NCBI GenBank assembly: GCA_965645245.1
Contig: OZ287079.1
Coordinates: 372,001-436,000 of the forward strand
From: Massalongia carnosa
Taxonomy: Eukaryota
Length of the DNA: 64,000 nucleotides
Reading direction: 5' to 3'
This document shows positions 26,948 through 59,503 of this stretch, piece by piece (positions within the stretch are counted from its first letter, which is position 1; each line of letters begins with the position of its first letter). Position numbers and translations under genes: made by a program. Below the pieces are notes generated by a model. The model did not search any database, was not told where the DNA came from, and saw only the letters and a program-made list of their open reading frames with translations.

Positions 26948-29900
26948 AATATATTAGATTCCTGTCAAATTATAGGATAACTAATCCTAAACATCAGTGG
27001 TAACTCATGATGATATATCCGAAGGGTTATTCCGGCCCGACTAGACACGGGGCCTCCCCCCATTAGATAGATTCCCACTTTTCCAAAAACATACAATCAA
27101 CATCTACCCAATTCCCTGATTATGCCTTTTGACCCTTATATATTTAACAATTCCTCGTTGATTTATGATTACGTGCAACGAATAACTGCACTGCGCCGAA
27201 GGCAGGTTAAGTCCATTCAACTAGCTCCGTTGCTTTCCCTAATAGAATTCAGGGCTGATCATCAGTTACAGCACACCAAAGCTTAAGTGCCGGCATCGAA
27301 GACATCGAGGCAAGCTTGACGACTATGAGAGGTGAGCATATCATACTACTATATTCAAAACCTGAGCAATGCAGAAGAGCTCAAGAGACTTATTTACTTC
27401 ATTAAGGATGTCAAGGTGCTCGACAAAGAACGCAGAACCTAGGAAGTATCATGTCCGAATTGAAAGAACCCATCAATCGATCTGCTCCCAGATCTCGGAA
27501 ATTCATGATTCTCTAGAACGTAAGCTGATTACTCCCAAGTTGAGTTATCGATATGTCATGACGTTTTACTCTGAGTCTTTTATCATGGAGAACTCTAGTC
27601 TAATCATAGACTTGTTTCTGCATTCTGTTTCTGCATTCTGATTCCTTCATCAACTTTATAAAACTCATTCTTTTCTTTTCATGGATTTAGGTTGCAAAGC
27701 CGAAAGTTTCTAATCTAAACTTTAGGATGGAAGCGTCATGAGCTTTTCAAATGGATTTCCCAAATACCGCATAAAACTCATCACACTACTATGGGAAAAT
27801 AATGCTTTGTAACTCGGGATTATGGCTACTGCAAAAGACTGAGTTCGTTGAGTGGAGAAAATCGAGTTCTTCGTCTATATTATGGCTACATGGGATTCGT
27901 AAGTAGATCCAATGCCGATGAAAACGCCCTATTTATGTGATTTGCAAAGCTGGATCTGGTAAAAACAAATTAGTGTAGGCCCTCCATCTTCTAAGAATGT
28001 TTTATTCAACTTTGATGCTGACGCGCAAAGTTTCACGGTCATCGATTTCCTCGAGAAGGAGAGAGCCACGAGCAGAAGCAACACACCTATTGCTTACTTT
28101 TACTGTACCCGAAATGCAACGGAGCCGCAACGCGCAAACCCCGATGAAATACTGCGAAGTATATTAAAGCAGCTATCATGCTCTAAGCTCGACTGCTCCA
28201 TAAAAAAGCCAGTGATGAAGGCTTACGCTGAAAGGAAAGAAGACGCTGACGAGAATAACTGCGATCCGGAAAAGTTGACAGCAACAGAATGTGTAGAACT
28301 AATTCTTGCTATTCTAGATTATGATCCAGCGGTTATTGTTATTGACGCTCTTGATGAATGTGACCCAGCTCGGCGACATGAGTTACTTCAAGCTCTGGAT
28401 AGAATCATTCAGATCTCAGCTAGTCTTATGAAGGTATTTGTATCAAGTCGCGACGACAACGACATTTTGTGCAGCTTATCTGAATCTCCAAACGTGTACA
28501 TCCATGCAAGCGACAATGACGAAGATATTCAGCGATTTGTGCGCGCCGAAGTTAATCAAGCAGTAAAAGATCGAAGATTACTTTGTGGTGACTTATCAGA
28601 TTCTTTGAAAGATCATATTATATGTACTCTAACTCGAGGTGCTCAGGGAATGTAAGTTTTGTCATAGGTTAGGCACTCCCATTTTGACATTGATCAGGTT
28701 TCGATGGGTTAGCCTTCAGCTTGAAAATCTCTGCGACATCGAACGCATCAAGCATGAAGGCGACGTCTGGCACGAGCTCGGCCGGCTGCCAACAACTCTC
28801 AAGGAATCATATGATGTCATCTTCTCACGAGTCAAAACATTAGGGTCTCAGAGCTGGCTGATAGCTAATAGCGCCTTAAAATGGCTGTTAAGTGCACAAC
28901 GTCCCCTTAATACTGCGGAATTCATAACCGCTGTGGCGGTAGATTTCAACGGGCAAGCTATCCCTCTTTCAAAAACGCAATTACTAAATATATGCTGTAA
29001 CATGGTTGTCGTAGATGCAGAGCTTGATCTTTTCCGATTTGCACATCTGTCTGTACAAGAATATATCGAAGGCCACGATGAATATATCGATATCAACATA
29101 CACTCGCATCCGTTGGAGAGATTTCTCGCCTTGTTTGTTCACGATGTAGCCTTAAGGACTGGGAACAAGAACTGTTTTACAGCCTATGCAACCCTACATT
29201 GGCCAAGTCATTACCAGCGCATCGAACATAATCAACTCTCCAGGACTATGGAAGCCAAGTTGACACAATTTCTATTCAACGATGTCGGCGATGCCTTCGC
29301 AAAGTGGGTCTCGTCTGCAAAGCAACTAAATGAGTCAATGCAGTGGACCAACCCTAAAAAGGTCATGTTACACGAAGCCTTATGCTCGCCGCCGACAGCC
29401 CAATTTATCGCAAGTTATCTTGGGCTATTCTCAATTCTCGAACTCCTGATCGCCTCGAAGAACATTGATTGGAATCAACGGAATGAAAACGGTCATACGT
29501 CCTTGCATCTTGCAGTATTACAGGACAGTGAAAAGACGGTGCGGTTGTTGCTGAAAGAAGAAATTAATTTGGAAGTAGCAAATAACGACACTATGACAGC
29601 CCTTTCCTTGGCAGCTGCAAACGGAAGAGGACGAATTGTGCGGCTTTTAGTGGAAGCGGGAGCCTCCCTTGGAGCGCGAGATTGGAACAACAGAACAGCC
29701 CTTCACTGTGTAGCGGTGACAGGAGATTCTGACGGACATCAAGCTGTCGTGAAAACTTTGTTAGCTCACGAGGCGGATCAGTCAATCGAAGATCGACACG
29801 GAATGACAGCGTTATGGCTTGCAGCTAAGTATGGGCATAAGACGGTGTTTAAGTTCCTTTTAAATGCCGGGCCATATAGTAACGCAACAGACAAGACAGG

Positions 29901-31329
29901 TCTTACCGCACTGCATATTGCGGTAACGCTTGGTCATTATCACACGGTGAAGATATTGTTATACGCAGGAGCAACTATTCGCTCAACGAATAACGAACTT
30001 GAACATGCACCCTTGCGTAACGGAAATGGTGAACTTGACAAACTGAGGACAGAGCTACATCCTAACGAGTTCGAGGTGACACCGTTGCACCTAGCAATAT
30101 TTCATGGACATTACGCCATAGCCAATTTACTTCTGGAAAAATTGGGAGCTGCGGATGTCGAAGAATTCACAGAAGGTGAAACGCTACACCCGGCAGATTG
30201 GATGAGGGTTGAGGAAGTGGCGACAGAGCTACTGAGAGAGAAAGTGACGATAGAGCTACCGACATTGTATTTGGATGACATTTATAATCCTAAGCCGACA
30301 GCCTTGGAAGTGGCTGCCCTCGTTGGACAACTCGCCATTATGAGGATTCTGTTAGATAACGATGCAAAGGCCGATGCACGGAACCCACTGAAAGAGAAAG
30401 CGTTAATGCAGGCCGCTGGAGCAAAGCAAGATAGTGCGACGAAATTGCTATTAGAGTACGGTGCAAACGTGAATTTCAAGCGGGACACGGATAGTCAGAC
30501 AGCTTTACACTTAGCCGCCGAGAGCGGAAATTTAGTCCTAACGAAAATCCTGTTGAACAACGGCGCAGAAGTCAATTTGAGGAATAGAGACGATCAGACA
30601 CCGTTGTATCTTGCAGTCATCAACGAACACATAGAAACGATAAAACTGCTAATTGAGAGCGGTGCAAATATCGATATCAGAGACTCAAAGAGTGAAACGG
30701 CATTAGATCATGCCGTCTATTGTCAAAACGAAGAAGTAATGGAGACATTGTTGAGAAACGGCGCAGACATCGAATTAAAAGATTCGCTAGGTTATTCAGC
30801 ACTTCACGTAGAAGCTGTAATCGGGAATAGAAGATCCGTGAAATTTCTGCTAAAATACGACGCAAGCGTTGACGCAAGAACTGCATCCGGAGAGACAGCA
30901 TTGCATTTAACGGTTCAAGGCGCAATTTTAAACGAAGACGACAACGACTATTATACAGACGAAGACAGCGATTATTATACAGACGAATTTTCAAGCATAC
31001 TAAAATTACTGCTTAAATACGGGGCGGATATCAATGCGATGAATGCGAAGGGAGAAACCGCACTGGAAATCGCTGTCTTCGCAGGTGTGGTGGAGCTGGA
31101 GGTGCTGTTGTTAGAAGCTGGTGCCGATGCTGAGGATATCTACAGATTGACGAGACTCTTTTCTTGATCTGAAAATTCAATGTATCATTCATTCATTCAT
31201 TCATTCAATCATTCTAAAGTTATGATGATGTTCAACTCTTGTGTATGTGTGAGAAAGAGAGAGAGACTTTTTCTCCCGTGAGAAGAGAGAAGACGAAGGT
31301 AGAAAGATAGGCGCATATAAAAAAAGACT

Positions 31330-33172: not shown

Positions 33173-33503
33173 TGTTACGGTTCAACTAGGATGGAATTGG
33201 CTATCAACTAGGAAGCTATGAAACTGAAAATATCAAAGATGCAGAAAAGAAACAAGCAAAGGAAGTCCCCTCTAGGAGTCTATATAGATAATTGCTTGCC
33301 TCAACACAGCTGTTTGTCTACTTCCTTCGGAAATGTTCAGTTTGACCAAACAGTGTCTTCTACCTTTGATTCTTTCGTCCATCTGTTTGCTTCGGAAGTG
33401 TTCTTCCGAAGTGTCCCTTTCATGCCTTTGTTGCCTCTACGGTTTGTCCCTATTCGCTTTGTGATGATGATCGGGAATAAGGTTTAGCGCCGCGGAGCTT
33501 TCG
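33173..33503 (+). repeat. Truncated copy of LTR family X
   Basis: Near-identical to the reverse complement of about 48864-49190; starts TGTTACGG; cut by the MULE C TIR. Confidence 0.88.
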
Positions 33504-44401: not shown

Positions 44402-45070
44402 TCAAAGGTAGAAGACACTGTTTGGTCAAACTGAACACTTCCGAAGGAAGTATACAAACAGCTGTGTTGAGGCAAGCAATTATATATATAGACTCCTAGT
44501 GTAATAGCGCGGCAATACAGGACTGCGCTAGCTCCTGGGATGACTTAGTTACTCAAGAAGACCGGGTGATTGATAATCCGGATGCTTAGCCATGATAAGG
44601 CGGATAGCAATACCAAGCCATCGGCAATCAGCCTTACCAGTTGGTTAGGCAGCAACTGAAGCTATTCAGATAAGCCTCGATCTCATGGGAGGCCTGGGAC
44701 GCCTAGGAGACCTCAGCTAAAGGCAACAAGGCTATCTGCTAGACCTCAGCTGAAGGCAACAAGGTTATCTGCTAGACCTCAGCTGAAGGCAACAAGGCAG
44801 ACAGGTAAGAGGACAAGTAGTTAGTAAATAGGACCCCAAGGGGTATATAGAGAGCTCGATTTCTACCTTCAAGGAATCAGCTTTTAGCTTTAGCACCTAC
44901 CAATCTATTAGCAGTCACACTGAGCATTATAACCCATAAGGACCAGTGTCTACTGTCCCTCTTATACCTAGAGGGGACTTCCTTTGCTTGTTTCTTTTCT
45001 GCATCTTTGATATTTTCAGTTTTATAGCTTCCTAGTTGATAGCCAATTACATCCTAGTTGAACCGTAACA
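44402..45070 (-). repeat. Truncated LTR family X copy interrupted by another solo LTR
   Basis: Matches about 48997-49190 once 44500-44971 is removed; ends CCGTAACA. Confidence 0.88.
44500..44966. mobile_element. Solo LTR (467 bp) with internal 33-bp tandem repeats
   Basis: TSD CCTAG at 44495-44499 and 44967-44971; ends TGTAA...TTATA (expected terminal CA reads TA). Confidence 0.85.
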
Positions 45071-45201
45071 ATGCCGTAGGGGATTATGCCGTAGGGGATT
45101 ATATGCCGTGGGGGGGTTTTATGCCGTAGGGGATTCTATGCCGTAGGGGAATTTATGCCGTGGGGGATTTTATGCCGTAGAGGATTTTTGCCGTAGGGGA
45201 T
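45071..45201. repeat. G-rich minisatellite, 8 units of ATGCCGTAGGGGATT(N0-3)
   Basis: Directly visible tandem units of 15-18 bp. Confidence 0.92.
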
Positions 45202-45716: not shown

Positions 45717-48089
45717 ATGTCTTCTAGGGCTGAGGTTGAACATCTCACAAAGCTTTTGAAGGAAGCAAATCAACGCGCGGAGGAAGAGCAACAGCGAGCA
45801 GAGGAAGCAGGGCAGCGCGCGGAGGAAGAGCGACAGCGAGCAGAGGAAGCAGGGCAGCGCGCGGAGGAGGCAGTCCTGCGTGCGGAGGGAGCAGAGCGTC
45901 TTCGGGAGAAGGAGCGACAGCGCGCGGAGGAAGCAGGACAGCGCGCGAAGGAAGCAGGACAGCGCGCGGAGGAAGCAGGACAGCGCGCGGAAGAGGCAGC
46001 CTTCCGCACCCGAAAGACAACCTTTGAGGAGTATTTAAAAACTTGCCACGAACGTCTCCACAAACCTCTTTTGATTGAACTAGATAAACGGCTGACAACC
46101 AAGGGCTTTACGAGTGCTAAGAACAAGTTCTATCCCAAAACCTTGAGTCCATGGGAGGGGTTTCCTGAAATAAACCAGCAGCACTTTGATGAGATATGCG
46201 GATTCATTTATCCAGGCGATGAGTCGTCTCCGCGACTTTTTAGTCCGATCTTACATCTTGAAGAGTTAAGCCGCAAAATTCGTAGCCGAAGGCTTGCTAG
46301 TGAATCGGATTTGGAATCATATGAACGCATGGCAGTGGAAGATATGGTGACTGACGTCATCAGTCAGCTCTGTGACGTTGAGCTTGCTCGAGACCGATTT
46401 GAGCTCGGACAGGGAGTGACATTCGAGAATCACATGAACAATCTTCATGACGCTGCGGAAGAGGTTCAGGAGCGTCTAGACATACAAACTCCTCGAGCAA
46501 GACCATCCAAGAGCTCCGACTCCGATTCAGGCGCGAACCCAACTCGCACCCGTGCCAATCAATTCTGTGTCTACAAGAATATGGATGGCATCAAAAATCT
46601 GCTGTTTGTCGTCGAATATAAGCCACCTCACAAACTATCAATTGGCAATCTGAAAGCAGGTTTTCGAGAAATGAAAATTGAGGATATTCTTGGGCAAGCT
46701 ACGATTCCGACGGAGCCCGAGGCCAAACTGCAGTACAACGCTGATCAGTTGGTTTCGGCCGTGGCAACGCAGACATTTCATTACATGATCGAGAACGGAC
46801 TCAAGTATAGGTATATAACGACCGGAGAAGTATTTGTTTTTCTGCACATAAAAAAAAAGGATCCGACCACGCTCTATTATCATCTGACCGTGCCTACCGA
46901 CGACGCTACCTGTGATGCGGAGGATTTTCTGTGCTCCCAAACAGCCATTAGCCAGGTCGCAACCATGTGTCTATTGGCGTTTCGATCCAAACAACGAGAT
47001 CAGCGCTGGCGACAGAACGCCAAAAAGCACCTGAAAGAGTACATAATCGATTACGAGGAGATTCTTTTACGAATACCGGAGACGGAACGAAAGCTGACGC
47101 CATCGATAGCTCACAAAGGCCGATGGAATCTAATCAACAAGCGGTCACCATATTTAACGAGGAGCAGGGCCACATGCAATCCAGACGACATAGATGAAAA
47201 TAACGATGATGAGCAGGATGATCCTGATACACCAAGCGGTCCGAGAAGCGCAACTGTGGGCTATAAGAAAAAGGACACGGACAAAAGGAGCGATATAAAT
47301 CGCGAGGACACCAGTAAGCCAAACAGCGATGGAAGGGGACAGCGCCGGTACTGCACGCAAGCATGTCTGTTGGGTATTGCGAGGAAATCTTCGCTGGATC
47401 AGAAATGCCCAAACGCGCCTCTTCATTGTACACGCGGCAAGCAGCATGCCATTGATCTAGAGGAGTTTGTGAGGCTCGTTCGAGAACAGCTTGCGGAGGA
47501 CCTAGATCACGACTGCGAGCCGCTTGGACTTCAAGGGGCGCGGGGGGCTCTTTTCAAGATTGCATTGACTTCGCACGGCTACGTATTTGTTGGCAAGGGA
47601 ACCGTGCGAGCTTTTGTCCCTGATCTGTTGCACGAGGGTAGAGTTTATCAACAGCTGAAGGATCTTCAAGGGACAGCGGTTCCAGTGTATCTTGGAAACG
47701 TTGACCTCGTGGATTGCTACTATCTTGACGTGGGTGTGAGAATATTGCACATGCTTTTGATGTCTTGGGGAGGGGAGACCATAGCGGAAACGGTGAGTCA
47801 AAATGAGGTTCAACGAACGGTGCGAGAAGTACGACGGGCTGGAATTGATCAACAAGATTTCCGAACAGAAAATATCTTGTGGAATGAGAAAAAGAAGCGC
47901 GCCATGTTGATTGACTTTGAACGAGCGGTATATATTGAACGCTGTGCGTTCGAGGCCAATGCGCTCGCAAACGGAAAAGTGCTGCGAGAAATATCGCCAA
48001 ACACGAAGCGAAAACGAGTAGAGTCTTTAACAAGCAGGCAAGCAGTTGCCACGAGATCAACGATATGGCCGAAACAACGTAGTCGGTGA
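45717..48089 (+). CDS. Spok-family (spore-killer-like) protein: coiled-coil repeats, PD-(D/E)xK nuclease-like domain, Cys cluster, kinase-like domain
   Basis: EEAGQRA heptad repeats; TTFEEYL..CH; VVEYKPPHKL; YCTQACLLG..LDQKCPN..H; GARGALFK..GYVFVGKG; D..TENILW..LIDFER. Confidence 0.82.
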   Translation: MSSRAEVEHLTKLLKEANQRAEEEQQRAEEAGQRAEEERQRAEEAGQRAEEAVLRAEGAERLREKERQRAEEAGQRAKEAGQRAEEAGQRAEEAAFRTRKTTFEEYLKTCHERLHKPLLIELDKRLTTKGFTSAKNKFYPKTLSPWEGFPEINQQHFDEICGFIYPGDESSPRLFSPILHLEELSRKIRSRRLASESDLESYERMAVEDMVTDVISQLCDVELARDRFELGQGVTFENHMNNLHDAAEEVQERLDIQTPRARPSKSSDSDSGANPTRTRANQFCVYKNMDGIKNLLFVVEYKPPHKLSIGNLKAGFREMKIEDILGQATIPTEPEAKLQYNADQLVSAVATQTFHYMIENGLKYRYITTGEVFVFLHIKKKDPTTLYYHLTVPTDDATCDAEDFLCSQTAISQVATMCLLAFRSKQRDQRWRQNAKKHLKEYIIDYEEILLRIPETERKLTPSIAHKGRWNLINKRSPYLTRSRATCNPDDIDENNDDEQDDPDTPSGPRSATVGYKKKDTDKRSDINREDTSKPNSDGRGQRRYCTQACLLGIARKSSLDQKCPNAPLHCTRGKQHAIDLEEFVRLVREQLAEDLDHDCEPLGLQGARGALFKIALTSHGYVFVGKGTVRAFVPDLLHEGRVYQQLKDLQGTAVPVYLGNVDLVDCYYLDVGVRILHMLLMSWGGETIAETVSQNEVQRTVREVRRAGIDQQDFRTENILWNEKKKRAMLIDFERAVYIERCAFEANALANGKVLREISPNTKRKRVESLTSRQAVATRSTIWPKQRSR

Positions 48090-50300
48090 GCATCAGCGTC
48101 CCACATAACTCCCTGCAAAAGGAGATGTTCTTCGACTGCTCTCAAGCAAGTGTCATTATCACCGGCATTATCCAAAACACAGTAGCCGAGCCTACCCTTA
48201 GTTTATTAAACTTCAAGGGCCTTGACTATTAATTTTGACATATTCTCTCCACTATGGGGTCCAATAAGACGCTTCATGCCAAGAATCACTGTACGTGCTT
48301 GCCAGGAACGATCAATAAAGTGACAGCAAAGACCTAGCATAGAGAAATTTTTAGGAGACGACCATAAGTCAAAGGATATATGGACTTGGCAGTTACTTTC
48401 CACTATTAACTAAATCAATACAAGTTGACAAGCTAGAAATAGCTCTAATAGTGCAGCTTTAATCGACTTGGGGAGTGTATCATTGCCTCGTAAATACGGA
48501 CTTGAATATAAAAGCAGGTCTCGAAAAGCACGCTGCTCTACAATGGCAAAAGGAATTTGACAAATATAAAGTAATCGTAAGAGCTTTTGTCGAAAGACTT
48601 CTGGACTAAAAGGAGCAACTACTACCCCTTGTTGAAGCTGTTCAACAACAGAGACAGATGCCCTAGCAGCTGCTTTCCTTAGGTGGAACAAGATTATGGT
48701 TCTTTCGTAAGTGCTCTCCCAGTGCCGTTTGTGATCAAATACTCAGTATTAGAACTGTCACAATTCAACCACTGGCTGGTTCATTGAACTAACGAGAATA
48801 CGGCTTCTGCCGACAAGCTAACCACTCTCGTCACTTAATCCAAGATTAAGCGGGCATAAGGGACGAAAGCTCCGCGGCGCTAAACCTTATTCCCGATCAT
48901 CATCACAAAGCGAAAACGGACAAACCGTAGAGGCAACAAAGGCATGAAAGGGGCACTTCGGAAGAACACTTCCGAAGCAAACAGATGGACGAAAGAATCA
49001 AAGGTAGAAGATACTGTTTGGTCAAACTAATCACTTCCGAAGGAAGTAGACAAACAGCTGTGTTGAGGCAAGCAATTATATAGACTCCTAGAGGGGACTT
49101 CCTTTGCTTGTTTCTTTTCTGCATCTTTGATATTTTCAGTTTCATAGCTTCCTAGTTGGTAGCCAATTCCATCCTAGTTGAACCGTAACAAGAACCGTCT
49201 GCAACACCTGTAGTTAATTAGCTTTAATAATCGTTAATATAAACTAAATAGATATTGGACAAATGTATAGTACATGTCAAAATGACAAATCGATGGTTCG
49301 GTGTATATAAAATGGGCGGAATTGCACTGAATTCTATACACACTTTCATAGCAAACATAGCAAATAAGTATAAATTTGGTACTTTACATTTGTTACACAC
49401 CCAATAGGCCTTGCCCTCCCTCTCTGCCTTGGTTCCCCAATCCCATATCCAACTACGGCTCGCTCTAGCTCTCTTTTGAAGCTATTCCACTTGTAGGAGA
49501 CGCAAACCGGCCACCAATAACCCTGCCTTCAATAGAAGGTGTAGGTGACGACCTAGCAGGGCTGCTGGAACGGTCACCAGGAGCGTTCCTGTCGTCCTCA
49601 GAGTATATAGTGCCGCTCAGGGTGATATGGGGACGCTCCGTAGCTTGGGAAGACGTTGAGGGTGCAGGGGAACGTCGAGAAAAGCTCAGGGCTGACTGGG
49701 ATGGAGACCTCTGCCATACATTAATATATAAGCTTGATTAAATAAAGGATATGGATCAATACTCTTGAAGCTTTATTCCCAAGCTCTGCTGAACCAACCG
49801 TACGCTTTCTGCCACGCGTAATACGTTCAGGAACGTCGATGTCACCTGCTCCAGGAAGCTCAAATACTGATTCTGTCTCGCCAGGGTCGGGGCGGGTTGT
49901 AGTCGTATCGTCACTAATATCAGACATCACTGCAAGTACGGTTCGGGACGGATTTTGGTGGTTTCTAGTTTAAATAGAAGCAAGTTCAGTCTATAGCAAG
50001 TGATATTTGTAGGTTGACACGAATAAAAGCAGTGAAACAAGTGAAATATCACTTAAAATGTGGGAATTACCATAGCTTTAATGCCCCTGGAGCTATACCT
50101 AAAACTCCACCTATAGTTAGACCCTAATCCATTGGACTCCATGGAGTCTACTCCATTAGATAAATCCTTATTGGAGTGACTCCATTAAGCCTAAAACCTT
50201 ATTGGATGGTCTCCATTTAAAAAAAAAACCCCTTTGGAGTGGATTGGAGTAGATTAAATGGAGTGGATATCCATTAAGAATCACTCCATTGCGAACACTG
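48030..50300 (-). mobile_element. Degenerate hAT transposon (5' end present, 3' half lost)
   Basis: CAGTGTTCGC terminus at 50300 with subterminal ACTCCAT/ATGGAGT repeats at 50100-50290; WVCNKC BED finger, ISFDLWSS, LDNAGDND, RLRCFGH. Confidence 0.85.
48756..49190 (-). mobile_element. Complete solo LTR of family X (435 bp) inserted in the hAT transposase
   Basis: TG..CA ends; TSD AGAAC at 48751-48755 and 49191-49195. Confidence 0.92.
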
Positions 50301-57997: not shown

Positions 57998-59503
57998 ATG
58001 TATTTTCCCGGTTCAATCGCACTTGCACTCCCTCTGTTCGCAGCCTTCGTTTCTGCCACGCCCGTTGATCGGTGAGTCGTTGGATCAGTCTCGTTTGTGC
58101 TCGTGCTTACCATTTGGCACAGTCTATCCCCAGACCCAGTCCGTCGTGTGCCAGATCTAGTGAAACGTATCGACCCTGGACCATCTCCCTACCCCTACGG
58201 CGACGAACTCGTTAATGAATTCAAATGGCATGGCTGGGACCCCGCTGACGCCGGTCAGAGAGCCGACGCACTGAAAATCCACAACGCCTACAACGATTGG
58301 GTCAACATGATCGCCTTCGCATGGAGGGAAGCCGACCAGAAGACCGATACCTTCAAGCGCTGGTTCGACGAGAGCAACGCGCAGGACGTCAAGAATGTGT
58401 TGGAGAGAATGGTCTCGCAGTCGGGTGTTCAACAAGCGACGCCTTTAATGACGGGCTGGATTTGCGAGAGGGAAGATATCAAGGGCGGGTGCACTCCGGG
58501 CAAGAACGCGTATTCCGTCTCCAACAAGGGACAGTTCCATCTCTGCCCGCCTGCGGTCGCGCTGCCGAATGCCAATGATTTGACGTGCACCGATCTGGAT
58601 GGATATGCATCGGCGAAGTTGAAGAGCGTGGCGTTTACCATGTTGCACGAGTCCACGTAAGTGCGTTCCTAATCCAGTGGTAGTCTCGGGAGTGGAAATC
58701 ATATTGATTAACCAATTTCGTTGTGTTCTAGCCATTGGACCCAAGTCGGCGACACCGCGCTCGCGAAACACATTGGCGACAAAGCGAACGGCGCATCTGA
58801 TTGCGTCAACCTCAGCAAAGACGACAAGCTGATCAACGCGCAAAACTACGCTTTCCTTGGCGCGGTTCGTCCTCTCCCCCCTCTCTCCTTTCCCTTCATC
58901 CTCTTCACTAAACCACTCAACTAACCCCGCACCCATCCCGTCCACAGGAAGCATATTTCCAGGTCAAAGGATGCACGTTCACCGACCCACCCCCAGGCAC
59001 CCGCGGCACCGACGACACCAACGATGACACCTCCGTCTCCACGGACACCTACACCGGCGGCTGGTGCGGCATCCATGTGACCCAGTATCAAAAGAACGAG
59101 GACTCCGGCCCCGTGACCCACAGCCCGGAGTACGTGCTCAGCGTATGCGTGTTCGACGGGGCGCAAGTTTTACTCAACCAGTTCCCCGGCGAGCCGCAGG
59201 GCCAGTGCGGCCAGTTTGTCGCGCCGAACGGGTCACCGCAGCCGGTAAGTGATTTCCTATCATCCTTTTCCGAGGGAGATCCGGACGAGAAGAAGAAGCG
59301 AGGCGCTGATTTGATTTTGATCGGGTTAGATTGATACGGCACTGCCTTTCCTCGTGCACGTGACGGCCGGAGCCGTGGACGACGACCCCGTCTGGTTCGA
59401 GTATGGCGATCAGAGGTGGAACAGCAACGATCAGGCCCATCACTCCAATTTCGGGGCTTATGACAATGGGAAGAGAGAGGGGGACACGGGATTCAGTTGC
59501 TAA
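57998..59503 (+). CDS. Secreted HExxH zinc metalloprotease (deuterolysin/M35-like) with an extra C-terminal domain, multi-exon
   Basis: Signal peptide MYFPGSIALALPLFAAFVSA; KR processing site; HESTH split by an intron at about 58657-58730; NAQNY; C-terminal WCGIHVTQYQKNE...GDTGFSC. Confidence 0.8.

Follow-up and report, generated by a model that had tools for sequence, protein, structure and literature searches.

A Spok-family gene of the lichen fungus Massalongia carnosa with asparagine at the first catalytic aspartate column of its nuclease motif: a probable disarmed toxin-antidote gene

Within the analysed window, a stretch of 64,000 nucleotides of the M. carnosa genome, we found a complete open reading frame of 790 codons plus stop (45717..48089, + strand), with an ATG start and no interruption, which its sequence identifies as an authentic Spok-type toxin-antidote gene of full length, and in which asparagine (Asn281) occupies the column of the predicted nuclease's first catalytic Asp. 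Because Asn here replaces a catalytic Asp of the killing nuclease, the copy is probably disarmed, and we hold with moderate confidence that it would be a nuclease-dead, kinase-intact toxin-antidote gene, either a disarmed driver or a resistance-only allele. Spok drivers encode toxin and antidote in one gene, and the present case bears on how drivers of this kind are tamed or die. In a family member that is well preserved in other respects, a single catalytic residue of the killing domain has been exchanged, and the gene therefore offers a natural test of whether killing requires the first Asp and whether resistance survives without it, although its practical value is limited, as crosses of lichen fungi are hardly feasible.

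Results

The original prediction had described a stop-free 790-aa ORF of Spok architecture, with heptad repeats, an ExK motif, a CxxxC..C cluster and a kinase-like end, and every one of these features was recovered at its place. In order, the protein comprises an N-terminal coiled coil, a PD-(D/E)xK restriction-endonuclease-like domain, a Cys/His cluster and an atypical Kdo/ELK-like kinase. The coiled coil is encoded by a 21-bp tandem repeat of 11.4 copies (45760..45999, + strand), whose heptads are of the QRAEEAG type and correspond to the predicted heptad repeats; in pairwise alignment the heptad region is 28 residues longer than in the relative P0002, and a Pfam Alanine_zipper match to the N-terminal region is weak and under the cut-off (E 0.0014). 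Spok genes contain a coiled-coil repeat of variable length (Vogan 2019, PMC6660238), and a variable-repeat N-terminal coiled coil of this kind is present in the 790-aa protein.

Sequence comparison supports membership in the family of Spok-type nuclease-kinases, which is named IPR052396 in PMC12693581. We obtained 235 homologues at E ≤ 1e-3, and 2712 representatives at the same threshold, 835 of them at E ≤ 1e-30. FOXG_17087 matched with E 1.5e-140, and the Polytolypa hystricis protein P0163, which is 35% identical across residues 98-784, with E 6e-128; these matches provide the full-length similarity to SPOK-family proteins that the prediction implied. The Pfam family PF27653 occurs in all 120 matches listed, and the 790-aa protein groups with Spok homologues of Fusarium, Metarhizium and Beauveria. 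The placement rests on these other Spok homologues and not on a direct alignment with SPOK1-4, and none of the 120 matches listed for each of the queries P0001, FOXG_17087 and the Polytolypa protein bore a Podospora name. The host is an ascomycete, and the nearest database relatives of the gene come from lichen-forming Lecanoromycetes.

Asn281 is encoded by the codon AAT at 46557..46559 (+ strand; context GCC AAT), in the segment RANQFCVY that begins at residue 279, in agreement with the predicted position of about 46557. Asp is the family state of this column, as the original prediction had it: the 239 homologues have D in 232, a gap in 5, V in 1 and N in 1 (the 790-aa protein itself), and the 150 more diverse representatives (clusters at 50% identity) have D in 129, a gap in 13, N in 3, E in 2 and P, H and Y in 1 each, so Asn is abnormal for the family. 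Besides the 790-aa protein, the representatives with N are P0247 and P0344. Both closest relatives, P0002 (68% identity) and P0003 from Lobaria immixta (65% identity), read RADQFCVY. Judged from these alignments, Asn281 is not chance variation.

In PD-(D/E)xK enzymes the motif Asp binds a metal ion, and an amide in its place usually abolishes cleavage. The complete set of an active killer (Asp, Asp/Glu and Lys) is not present here, the three residues being N281, E300 and K302. N281 and K302 are 21 residues apart, exactly as are 219 and 240 in SPOK3, and N281 would accordingly stand in the column of SPOK3 D219 by D-to-K spacing and published coordinates, not by alignment; the killing-domain residues are named as D219, D238 and K240 in a legend of the 2026 preprint 10.64898/2026.10.04.756499. 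Since D219 is not among the SPOK residues given as mutated in the available text of four sources, which are only K240/K247 and D667/D680 (PMC6660238, PMC9972908, PMC12693581, 10.64898/2026.10.04.756499), the effect of the D-to-N change is deduced from general PD-(D/E)xK enzymology.

It is improbable, in our view, that the gene is a still-active toxin-antidote system in which Asn281 is tolerated, in which another acidic residue (e.g., D290 in the following hairpin) binds the metal, or in which the domain acts by binding and not by cleavage. Such activity would agree with the retention of E300, K302, H305, K306 and QxxxY, with the Asn at column 281 of P0247 and P0344, whose kinase residues are intact, and with a Spok killing mechanism that is not settled (PMC6660238, PMC9972908). 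However, the Asp is near-invariant (232/239 and 129/150), and P0247, whose branch is very long (0.659), is also without the conserved Cys and therefore looks degenerate and not like a working variant. The usual loss of PD-(D/E)xK cleavage when an amide takes the place of the metal-binding Asp likewise argues against activity.

An assembly error as the source of Asn281 is unlikely. A sequencing or assembly error at 46557, with GAT as the true codon, would involve a single-base difference, and long-read assemblies are open to systematic errors of the kind described in Fusarium Spok genes (PMC12693581). Yet the Logan contigs of X1, X2 and X4, which are public runs from two studies, one of them possibly the assembly source, and whose contigs drop rare variants, showed 0 differences over 45960-47534 or further, which makes such an error very improbable. 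Run X5 was considered as a diverged allele and rejected, its word share of 0.62 reflecting coverage, with low-depth pieces that showed no differences; runs X6-X9 contained next to none of the gene's words, which is no proof of absence.

E300-Y-K302 (46614..46622, + strand), which forms the (D/E)xK portion of the nuclease motif, is intact, with E and K each in 234/239 homologues, and it accounts for the ExK motif predicted in VVEYKPPHK, which begins at residue 298. The QxxxY motif reads Q352-T-F-H-Y356 (46770..46784, + strand; Q 239/239, Y 223/239) and is found at residues 294-298 in SPOK3 (Vogan 2019, PMC6660238). In an AlphaFold2 model of residues 100-470 (46014..47126, + strand; mean pLDDT 86.7, pTM 0.85), domains 1 and 2 are predicted to form one restriction-endonuclease-like (PD-(D/E)xK) module, with Asn281 directly before strand 183-190 and the E300/K302 motif at the end of strand 193-202 (model numbering). 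A first Asp at a strand start and (D/E)xK at the end of the next strand is the usual PD-(D/E)xK arrangement.

A wide VIA-align search with the model was headed by nuclease domains of restriction endonucleases, with BpuSI (3s1s; Z 9.0, rmsd 4.0, 156 aligned), DrdV (7lo5; Z 7.0), HsdR of EcoR124I (Z 6.5) and HsdR of V. vulnificus (Z 6.2), and nucleases of the restriction-endonuclease fold filled much of the top 50, with moderate Z values. Foldseek against the PDB returned no match at E ≤ 0.001, and a direct PDB sequence search gave only two chance-level matches (E about 0.8); VIA-align alone recognised the fold. As modelled, domain 2 is a restriction-endonuclease-like fold, as in the Spok family. 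Type IIG and type I restriction enzymes (3s1s, 7lo5, 2w00, 3h1t) have nuclease domains that share this fold with domain 2 at a sequence identity of 8-17%, and 3h1t is the HHpred match reported for SPOK3 (Vogan 2019, PMC6660238); unlike these enzymes, the 790-aa protein has no helicase or methyltransferase partner and carries a fused kinase instead.

Downstream, the residues C546, C550, C564, H570 and H577 (47352..47447, + strand) form a Cys/His cluster of the pattern C-x3-C-x13-C-x5-H-x6-H, in which C546-x3-C550-x13-C564 is the CxxxC..C cluster first noticed. The Spok pattern is C-x3-C-x13-C-x5-H-x7-H (Vogan 2019, PMC6660238), so that SPOK3 and the 790-aa protein differ in the last His spacing (x7 vs x6), and the Spok-family combination of QxxxY with a C-x3-C-x13-C-x5-H cluster is present. 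The kinase core, delimited by a Pfam Kdo match and by conservation, consists of K627, D714-x-R-x-x-N719 and D733-F-E (47595..47921, + strand). The Kdo/WaaP match (residues 696-740, E 6.2e-05) scores 23 bits against a cut-off of 21.3 and bears out the kinase-like end. K627, D714, N719 and D733 are all intact, as in the atypical kinase of the Spok family, D714 and D733 being the Asp of QQD and the DFE that had been described as kept.

Besides D281N, one further conserved residue is changed: position 725, E in 221/239 homologues (others include D, R, T, W and G), is K through the codon AAA at 47889, a charge reversal. The last 16 codons (48042..48089, + strand) lie inside a high-copy repeat, as indicated by a contig depth in X1 that rises from 464 to >12000 at the 3' end of the gene and by a repeat-family contig boundary with a loose end at 48042; similarity to P0002 in pairwise alignment stops near residue 777. 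From codon 776 onwards the native C-terminal tail appears to have been replaced by a repeat-derived one. Together with E725K, this tail could mean that the antidote side is also impaired.

Early pseudogenisation is the main rival to a disarmed gene, and we regard it as possible but doubtful. It supposes that selection ended after fixation or loss of the targets, that D281N, E725K and the 3' repeat insertion are first hits of decay, that killing and resistance are both unused, and that the time elapsed has simply been too short to break the ORF. It would account for D281N and E725K as the two conserved-column changes, each a G-to-A substitution in the first position of its codon, for the repeat boundary inside the last 16 codons, and for the high-copy repeats near the start, which reach to roughly 100-200 bp from the ATG, so that the promoter may be damaged. 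The region is rich in transposable elements and has no other conserved host genes adjoining the ORF, and pseudogenised Spok homologues are noted in Vogan 2019 (PMC6660238). Against this stand the 790 uninterrupted codons and the kinase and Cys/His residues, all intact, and variable 3' ends are normal for Spok homologues (Vogan 2019, PMC6660238). Moreover, only D281N and E725K violate the 91 columns conserved at ≥93%, a number equal to the family median, and relative-rate tests against P0002 and P0003 (outgroups P0004-P0006) revealed no acceleration (all chi-square <1.5; unique changes 51 v 64, 54 v 64, 44 v 49, 43 v 43 and 52 v 56). By this measure of its sequence, the lineage is not faster-evolving than its Asp-bearing sisters, which argues against long-term decay. 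The rival overlaps with the preferred reading, since later decay is to be expected once a driver has been disarmed.

Discussion

In Podospora, the nuclease-like domain of Spok proteins kills and the kinase protects. In the disarmed gene that we favour, D281N at the first catalytic Asp, with E300, K302, QxxxY and the catalytic residues of the kinase kept, would have removed killing, and the intact kinase motifs would have retained the antidote and thus resistance. The outcome would be a disarmed driver or a resistance-only allele, like engineered SPOK3 K240A, which does not kill and keeps resistance (Vogan 2019, PMC6660238). The analysis itself establishes the sequence, the family, the fold, how rare Asn is at this column and that the kinase motifs are intact, whereas loss of nuclease activity, retained resistance and a link to meiotic drive are what we infer; intact motifs do not guarantee activity, because three of six Fusarium homologues were without effect in yeast despite conserved catalytic residues (PMC12693581).

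By analogy, the phenotype predicted for the nuclease site here is that of K240A, non-killing with resistance kept, but K240A was engineered at the Lys and D281N is natural and at the first Asp. The 790-aa protein shares with Podospora SPOK3 the order of parts (coiled coil, PD-(D/E)xK, QxxxY, Cys/His cluster, catalytic-Asp kinase) but its identity to Spok homologues of clade II is only about 35%, and no drive is known for the lichen-fungus clade of this gene. A natural parallel is the Spok2 allele of Podospora strain A, in which mutations in the nuclease domain affect killing and leave resistance in place (Grognet 2014, as cited in Vogan 2019, PMC6660238). Both are natural changes in a conserved part of the nuclease domain, but the strain A mutations lie near catalytic residues and D281N at one, and the phenotype was measured in Spok2 only. 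For Podospora, hardly any natural resistance is described, and one strain only is mentioned (Vogan 2019, PMC6660238).

The Fusarium genes FuSpok1/2 and FOXG_14774 belong to the same family (matches P0086-P0113) and are also located in transposon-rich or accessory regions, and in Fusarium homologues a kinase-dead mutation reveals toxicity (PMC12693581, 10.64898/2026.10.04.756499). Unlike the Asn281 gene, they are reported to keep the characterised catalytic residues (PMC12693581, 10.64898/2026.10.04.756499). Some Fusarium homologues ride Starships with a DUF3435 captain, whereas a scan of 38 further ORFs of our window, out of 45 of at least 150 aa, revealed no captain, and Starships can exceed 64 kb. 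A literature search for Spok in lichens and in Lecanoromycetes turned up no relevant paper.

Across the family, 11 of 346 proteins combine a changed nuclease triad with intact kinase residues and 2 of 346 show the reverse, the 346 being those complete at seven catalytic sites once 36 incomplete rows had been removed from 382. The asymmetry gives a binomial p of 0.0026 against an expectation of 3/7, for sequences that are related, unweighted and gene predictions. A kinase-dead Spok copy is self-toxic (Vogan 2019, PMC6660238), and the toxin must therefore go first; the excess of nuclease over kinase losses fits this order and agrees with theory and experiment, but as it comes from unweighted database proteins we treat it as a lead only. 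More speculatively, and in our estimate rather unlikely in this full form, the gene would be a Spok disarmed in nature and maintained by selection for resistance alone, as a suppressor of active killers in the same lichen-fungus population, and nuclease loss with kinase retention would be the recurrent way in which Spok-type drivers die.

Concerning the surroundings, it had been noted that most transposon ORFs nearby are broken, which is only partly true: the Copia, gypsy, MULE, Tc1 and pogo-like ORFs are interrupted by stops or frameshifts, yet several of them extend over 845-980 aa. A tblastn search of the 64-kb window with the protein found only the gene itself and no paralogue. RIP was considered as the cause of both G-to-A changes and is ruled out by the window indices and the gene's own values, TpA/ApT being 0.37-1.07 with a composite index ≤0 in all 2-kb windows, and the two values being 0.58 and 1.30 in the gene. 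If the ancestral codon was GAT, the GCC AAT context would represent a CpG-to-CpA change, for which no relative's DNA close enough for a test was found. A metagenome scan returned one locus (L001, 44% identity), too distant for rate estimates, in which the Asp is kept.

An intact ORF of the Spok-type family

The Spok-type ORF (45717..48089, + strand) comprises 790 codons, starts with ATG and has zero internal stops, as the original prediction had it; a stop-free run of this length cannot arise by chance at 48% G+C, and the encoded window protein has hundreds of full-length homologues. The features foreseen along the protein are likewise present: a 21-bp tandem repeat (11.4 copies, 45760-45999, + strand) codes for the heptads, RANQFCVY starts at residue 279 with Asn281 specified by AAT at 46557-46559 (+ strand), the ExK motif VVEYKPPHK supplies E300 and K302, and the Cys cluster reads C546-x3-C550-x13-C564-x5-H570. 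The kinase-like end matches the Pfam Kdo/WaaP kinase model (E 6.2e-05), barely exceeding, at 23 bits, the cut-off of 21.3 bits. The kinase Asp (D714, in QQD) and the DFE motif (D733-F-E) said to be retained are both there, and the kinase residues K627, D714, N719 and D733 are all kept. The length of the 21-bp array is taken from the assembly alone, because the Logan contigs of all four sequencing runs break inside this coiled-coil repeat (45820-45960), making it unsizable by short-read assemblies.

The first homologue search returned 235 proteins at E<=1e-3. Among the matches listed, lichen-forming Lecanoromycetes come first (Lobaria immixta, 65% identity; Circinaria, 57%; Xylographa, 52%; Varicellaria; Diploschistes), followed by Leotiomycetes and then, at 35-40% identity, by numerous proteins of Fusarium oxysporum and F. 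poae; all homologues listed carry the precomputed domain PF27653, a model that the Pfam search did not return for the window protein. The family is large, with 2712 matches at E<=1e-3 and 835 at E<=1e-30 among 1.84 billion cluster representatives scanned. Searches from FOXG_17087 and a Polytolypa hystricis protein led to a group of Fusarium, Metarhizium rileyi, Beauveria bassiana, Pochonia, Colletotrichum, Xylariales and Polytolypa, taxa matching those in which Vogan et al. 2019 place the close Spok homologues of clades I and II (PMC6660238). The proposed Spok kinship holds in that the window protein is homologous over its full length to this group, residues 98-784 aligning with the Polytolypa protein (35% identity, E 6e-128). 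No Podospora-named protein is among the matches listed, and the fit to SPOK3 is by published coordinates, not by alignment to SPOK1-4.

Judged by the SPOK3 coordinates in the text of Vogan et al. (PMC6660238), the two proteins agree: the PD-(D/E)xK span covers 21 residues in each (219 to 240 in SPOK3, 281 to 302 in the window protein), QxxxY lies at 294-298 and at Q352...Y356, respectively, and the kinase catalytic Asp is D667 in SPOK3 and D714 here, and the Cys/His cluster of SPOK3 (C-x3-C-x13-C-x5-H-x7-H) recurs in the window protein with a final spacing of x6.

Replacement of the first catalytic Asp

The Asp that the original prediction expected at position 281 is indeed the family residue. 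In a MAFFT alignment of 239 proteins, the column holds D in 232, a gap in five, V in one and N in one, the window protein, so Asn is abnormal there; in 150 representatives (50% clustering) it holds D in 129, a gap in 13, N in three (the window protein and the homologues P0247 and P0344), E in two, and P, H and Y in one each. The Val bearer, P0093, is also without the Lys and the Cys and looks degenerate. In the nearest relatives, P0002 and P0003, the motif is RADQFCVY and the residues around it are otherwise identical, and the metagenome locus L001 (44% identity) retains the Asp. A base-call error at 46557 is unlikely, given zero differences from the window in contigs of the public runs X1 (45960-48077), X2 (45960-49079) and X4 (45960-47534), which support the call and come from two studies, one possibly the source of the assembly.

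A structure model of residues 100-470, built from a 105-sequence alignment, reached a mean pLDDT of 86.7 and a pTM of 0.85, with disorder only at a linker (model residues 142-179) and the end. It places Asn281 (model residue 182) immediately before strand 183-190, while E300 and K302 (201 and 203) close the following strand, 193-202; an Asp before one strand and (D/E)xK ending the next is the usual PD-(D/E)xK arrangement. Foldseek gave zero matches in the PDB at E<=0.001. In a wide VIA-align search, restriction-enzyme nuclease domains rank first (BpuSI, Z 9.0, rmsd 4.0, 156 aligned residues), with further matches to DrdV (Z 7.0) and HsdR of EcoR124I (Z 6.5) and Vibrio vulnificus (Z 6.2), and lower ones to SgrAI, NgoMIV, EcoRI, Hjc and others. 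Two mitoribosomal proteins reach 7.8 and 6.9, which marks these Z values as moderate, yet the prevalence of same-fold nucleases in the model comparison supports a restriction-endonuclease-like assignment. The V. vulnificus HsdR is presumably the same structure (Uyen et al. 2009) that Vogan et al. name as the best HHpred match of SPOK3 (PMC6660238).

Predicted function and family-wide pattern

With an amide in place of the first PD-(D/E)xK carboxylate, a metal ligand is lost, and cleavage should be abolished or strongly reduced. The favoured reading is that Asn281 acts in this way here, which would leave the protein harmless to cells without it, while neutralisation of related killers could persist, all kinase residues being in place. 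A 2026 preprint gives D219, D238 and K240 as the SPOK3 killing-domain residues in a figure legend (10.64898/2026.10.04.756499). As established for Podospora and Fusarium, killing requires the nuclease-like domain (SPOK3 K240A, SPOK1 K247), resistance requires the kinase Asp and is retained in K240A, and the kinase-dead protein is toxic and DNA-damaging (PMC6660238, PMC9972908, 10.64898/2026.10.04.756499). An altered nuclease with an intact kinase would be expected of a post-fixation driver or a suppressor allele, and the original interpretation as a resistant, non-killing allele or disarmed driver is reasonable but unproven. An active killer that tolerates Asn281 is possible but unlikely in view of the Asp conservation at this column.

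The family-wide pattern lends the disarmed reading support. Seven sites were compared, three in the nuclease and four in the kinase, with D accepted as canonical at the middle nuclease position; 346 of 382 proteins were complete at all of them, the 36 incomplete rows being dropped. Both sets are canonical in 332 proteins, whereas only the nuclease set is altered in 11, only the kinase set in two, and both in one (binomial p 0.0026 for the nuclease-kinase asymmetry at an expectation of 3/7, with related, unweighted sequences and possibly wrong gene models). The 11 include P0247 and P0344, with Asn at the same column, and nine with other non-canonical triads. Spok homologues throughout Pezizomycotina and pseudogenised copies are already known, as is, from the description of Spok2 of strain A, a natural nuclease-domain allele with resistance kept (PMC6660238); for lichen fungi, our searches turned up no publication on Spok genes. 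New here is an otherwise intact member of a Lecanoromycete-like clade whose first catalytic Asp is replaced, a natural mutant useful for a simple assay and of modest surprise.

Constraint on the gene and its 3' end

The main rival, which grades into the disarmed-gene reading, is an early pseudogene. It draws on repeats close to the start, on E725K and on the 3' end, where the boundary of a high-copy repeat family at 48042 (codon 776) coincides with the end of similarity to P0002 at about residue 777, P0002 extending some 26 residues further. The extreme C-terminal tail thus seems to have been swapped for repeat sequence, which would supply the last codons and the stop (48042-48089, + strand) in place of a native tail as in P0002; according to Vogan et al., Spok homologues commonly have their stop codon shifted at the 3' end (PMC6660238). 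Against long decay stand the intact ORF, conservation at the family median and an evolutionary rate equal to that of the sisters. At 91 columns conserved in at least 93% of the first 120 sequences, the window protein departs twice (D281N and E725K), and the family median is also two. E725K sits past the catalytic loop and ahead of the DFE motif, in a column with E in 221 of 239 proteins; because D, R, T, W and G occur there in otherwise intact proteins and the window protein has Glu at 724, we rate its effect on the kinase uncertain rather than inactivating. P0002 and P0003, which share 84% identity, together form the sister group of the window protein, whose lineage has no excess of unique changes over these sisters (51 v 64, 54 v 64, 44 v 49, 43 v 43 and 52 v 56, with P0004, P0005 or P0006 as outgroup), hence no sign of long-standing relaxed constraint; Asn281 is either recent or carried by a gene still constrained.

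Genomic surroundings

The window amounts to a graveyard of transposons, with pieces of copia, gypsy, other reverse transcriptases, MULE, Tc1/mariner, pogo/Tc5-like and hAT-like elements, several of whose ORFs still span 845-980 aa. Contig depth is even across the Spok gene (X1, 464; X4, 840) and 10 to 500 times greater on either side (up to ~45.6 kb and from 48042 on), which makes the gene a low-copy island amid high-copy repeats. No DUF3435 captain was found in the 38 other ORFs scanned, of 45 ORFs of at least 150 aa in the window. In spite of the dense transposon content, the RIP signature is absent across the window (TpA/ApT 0.37-1.07, composite index <=0 in 32/32 2-kb windows, G+C 0.42-0.53). 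An NLR-like gene (27963-31167, + strand) encodes an NPHP3_N NTPase (E 6e-20) ahead of an extended array of ankyrin repeats (E 4e-79), and its split over overlapping frames (27963-28655 and 28633-31167) points to an intron or a frameshift. The ORF at 58076-58660 (+ strand), with a weak Aspzincin_M35 peptidase match under the Pfam cut-off (E 3.6e-06), may be a piece of a host gene. A ~330 bp repeat flanks the Spok gene in the same orientation (44402-45071, with a 467-bp insert inside, and 48864-49190), and a third copy lies on the opposite strand at 33173-33503.
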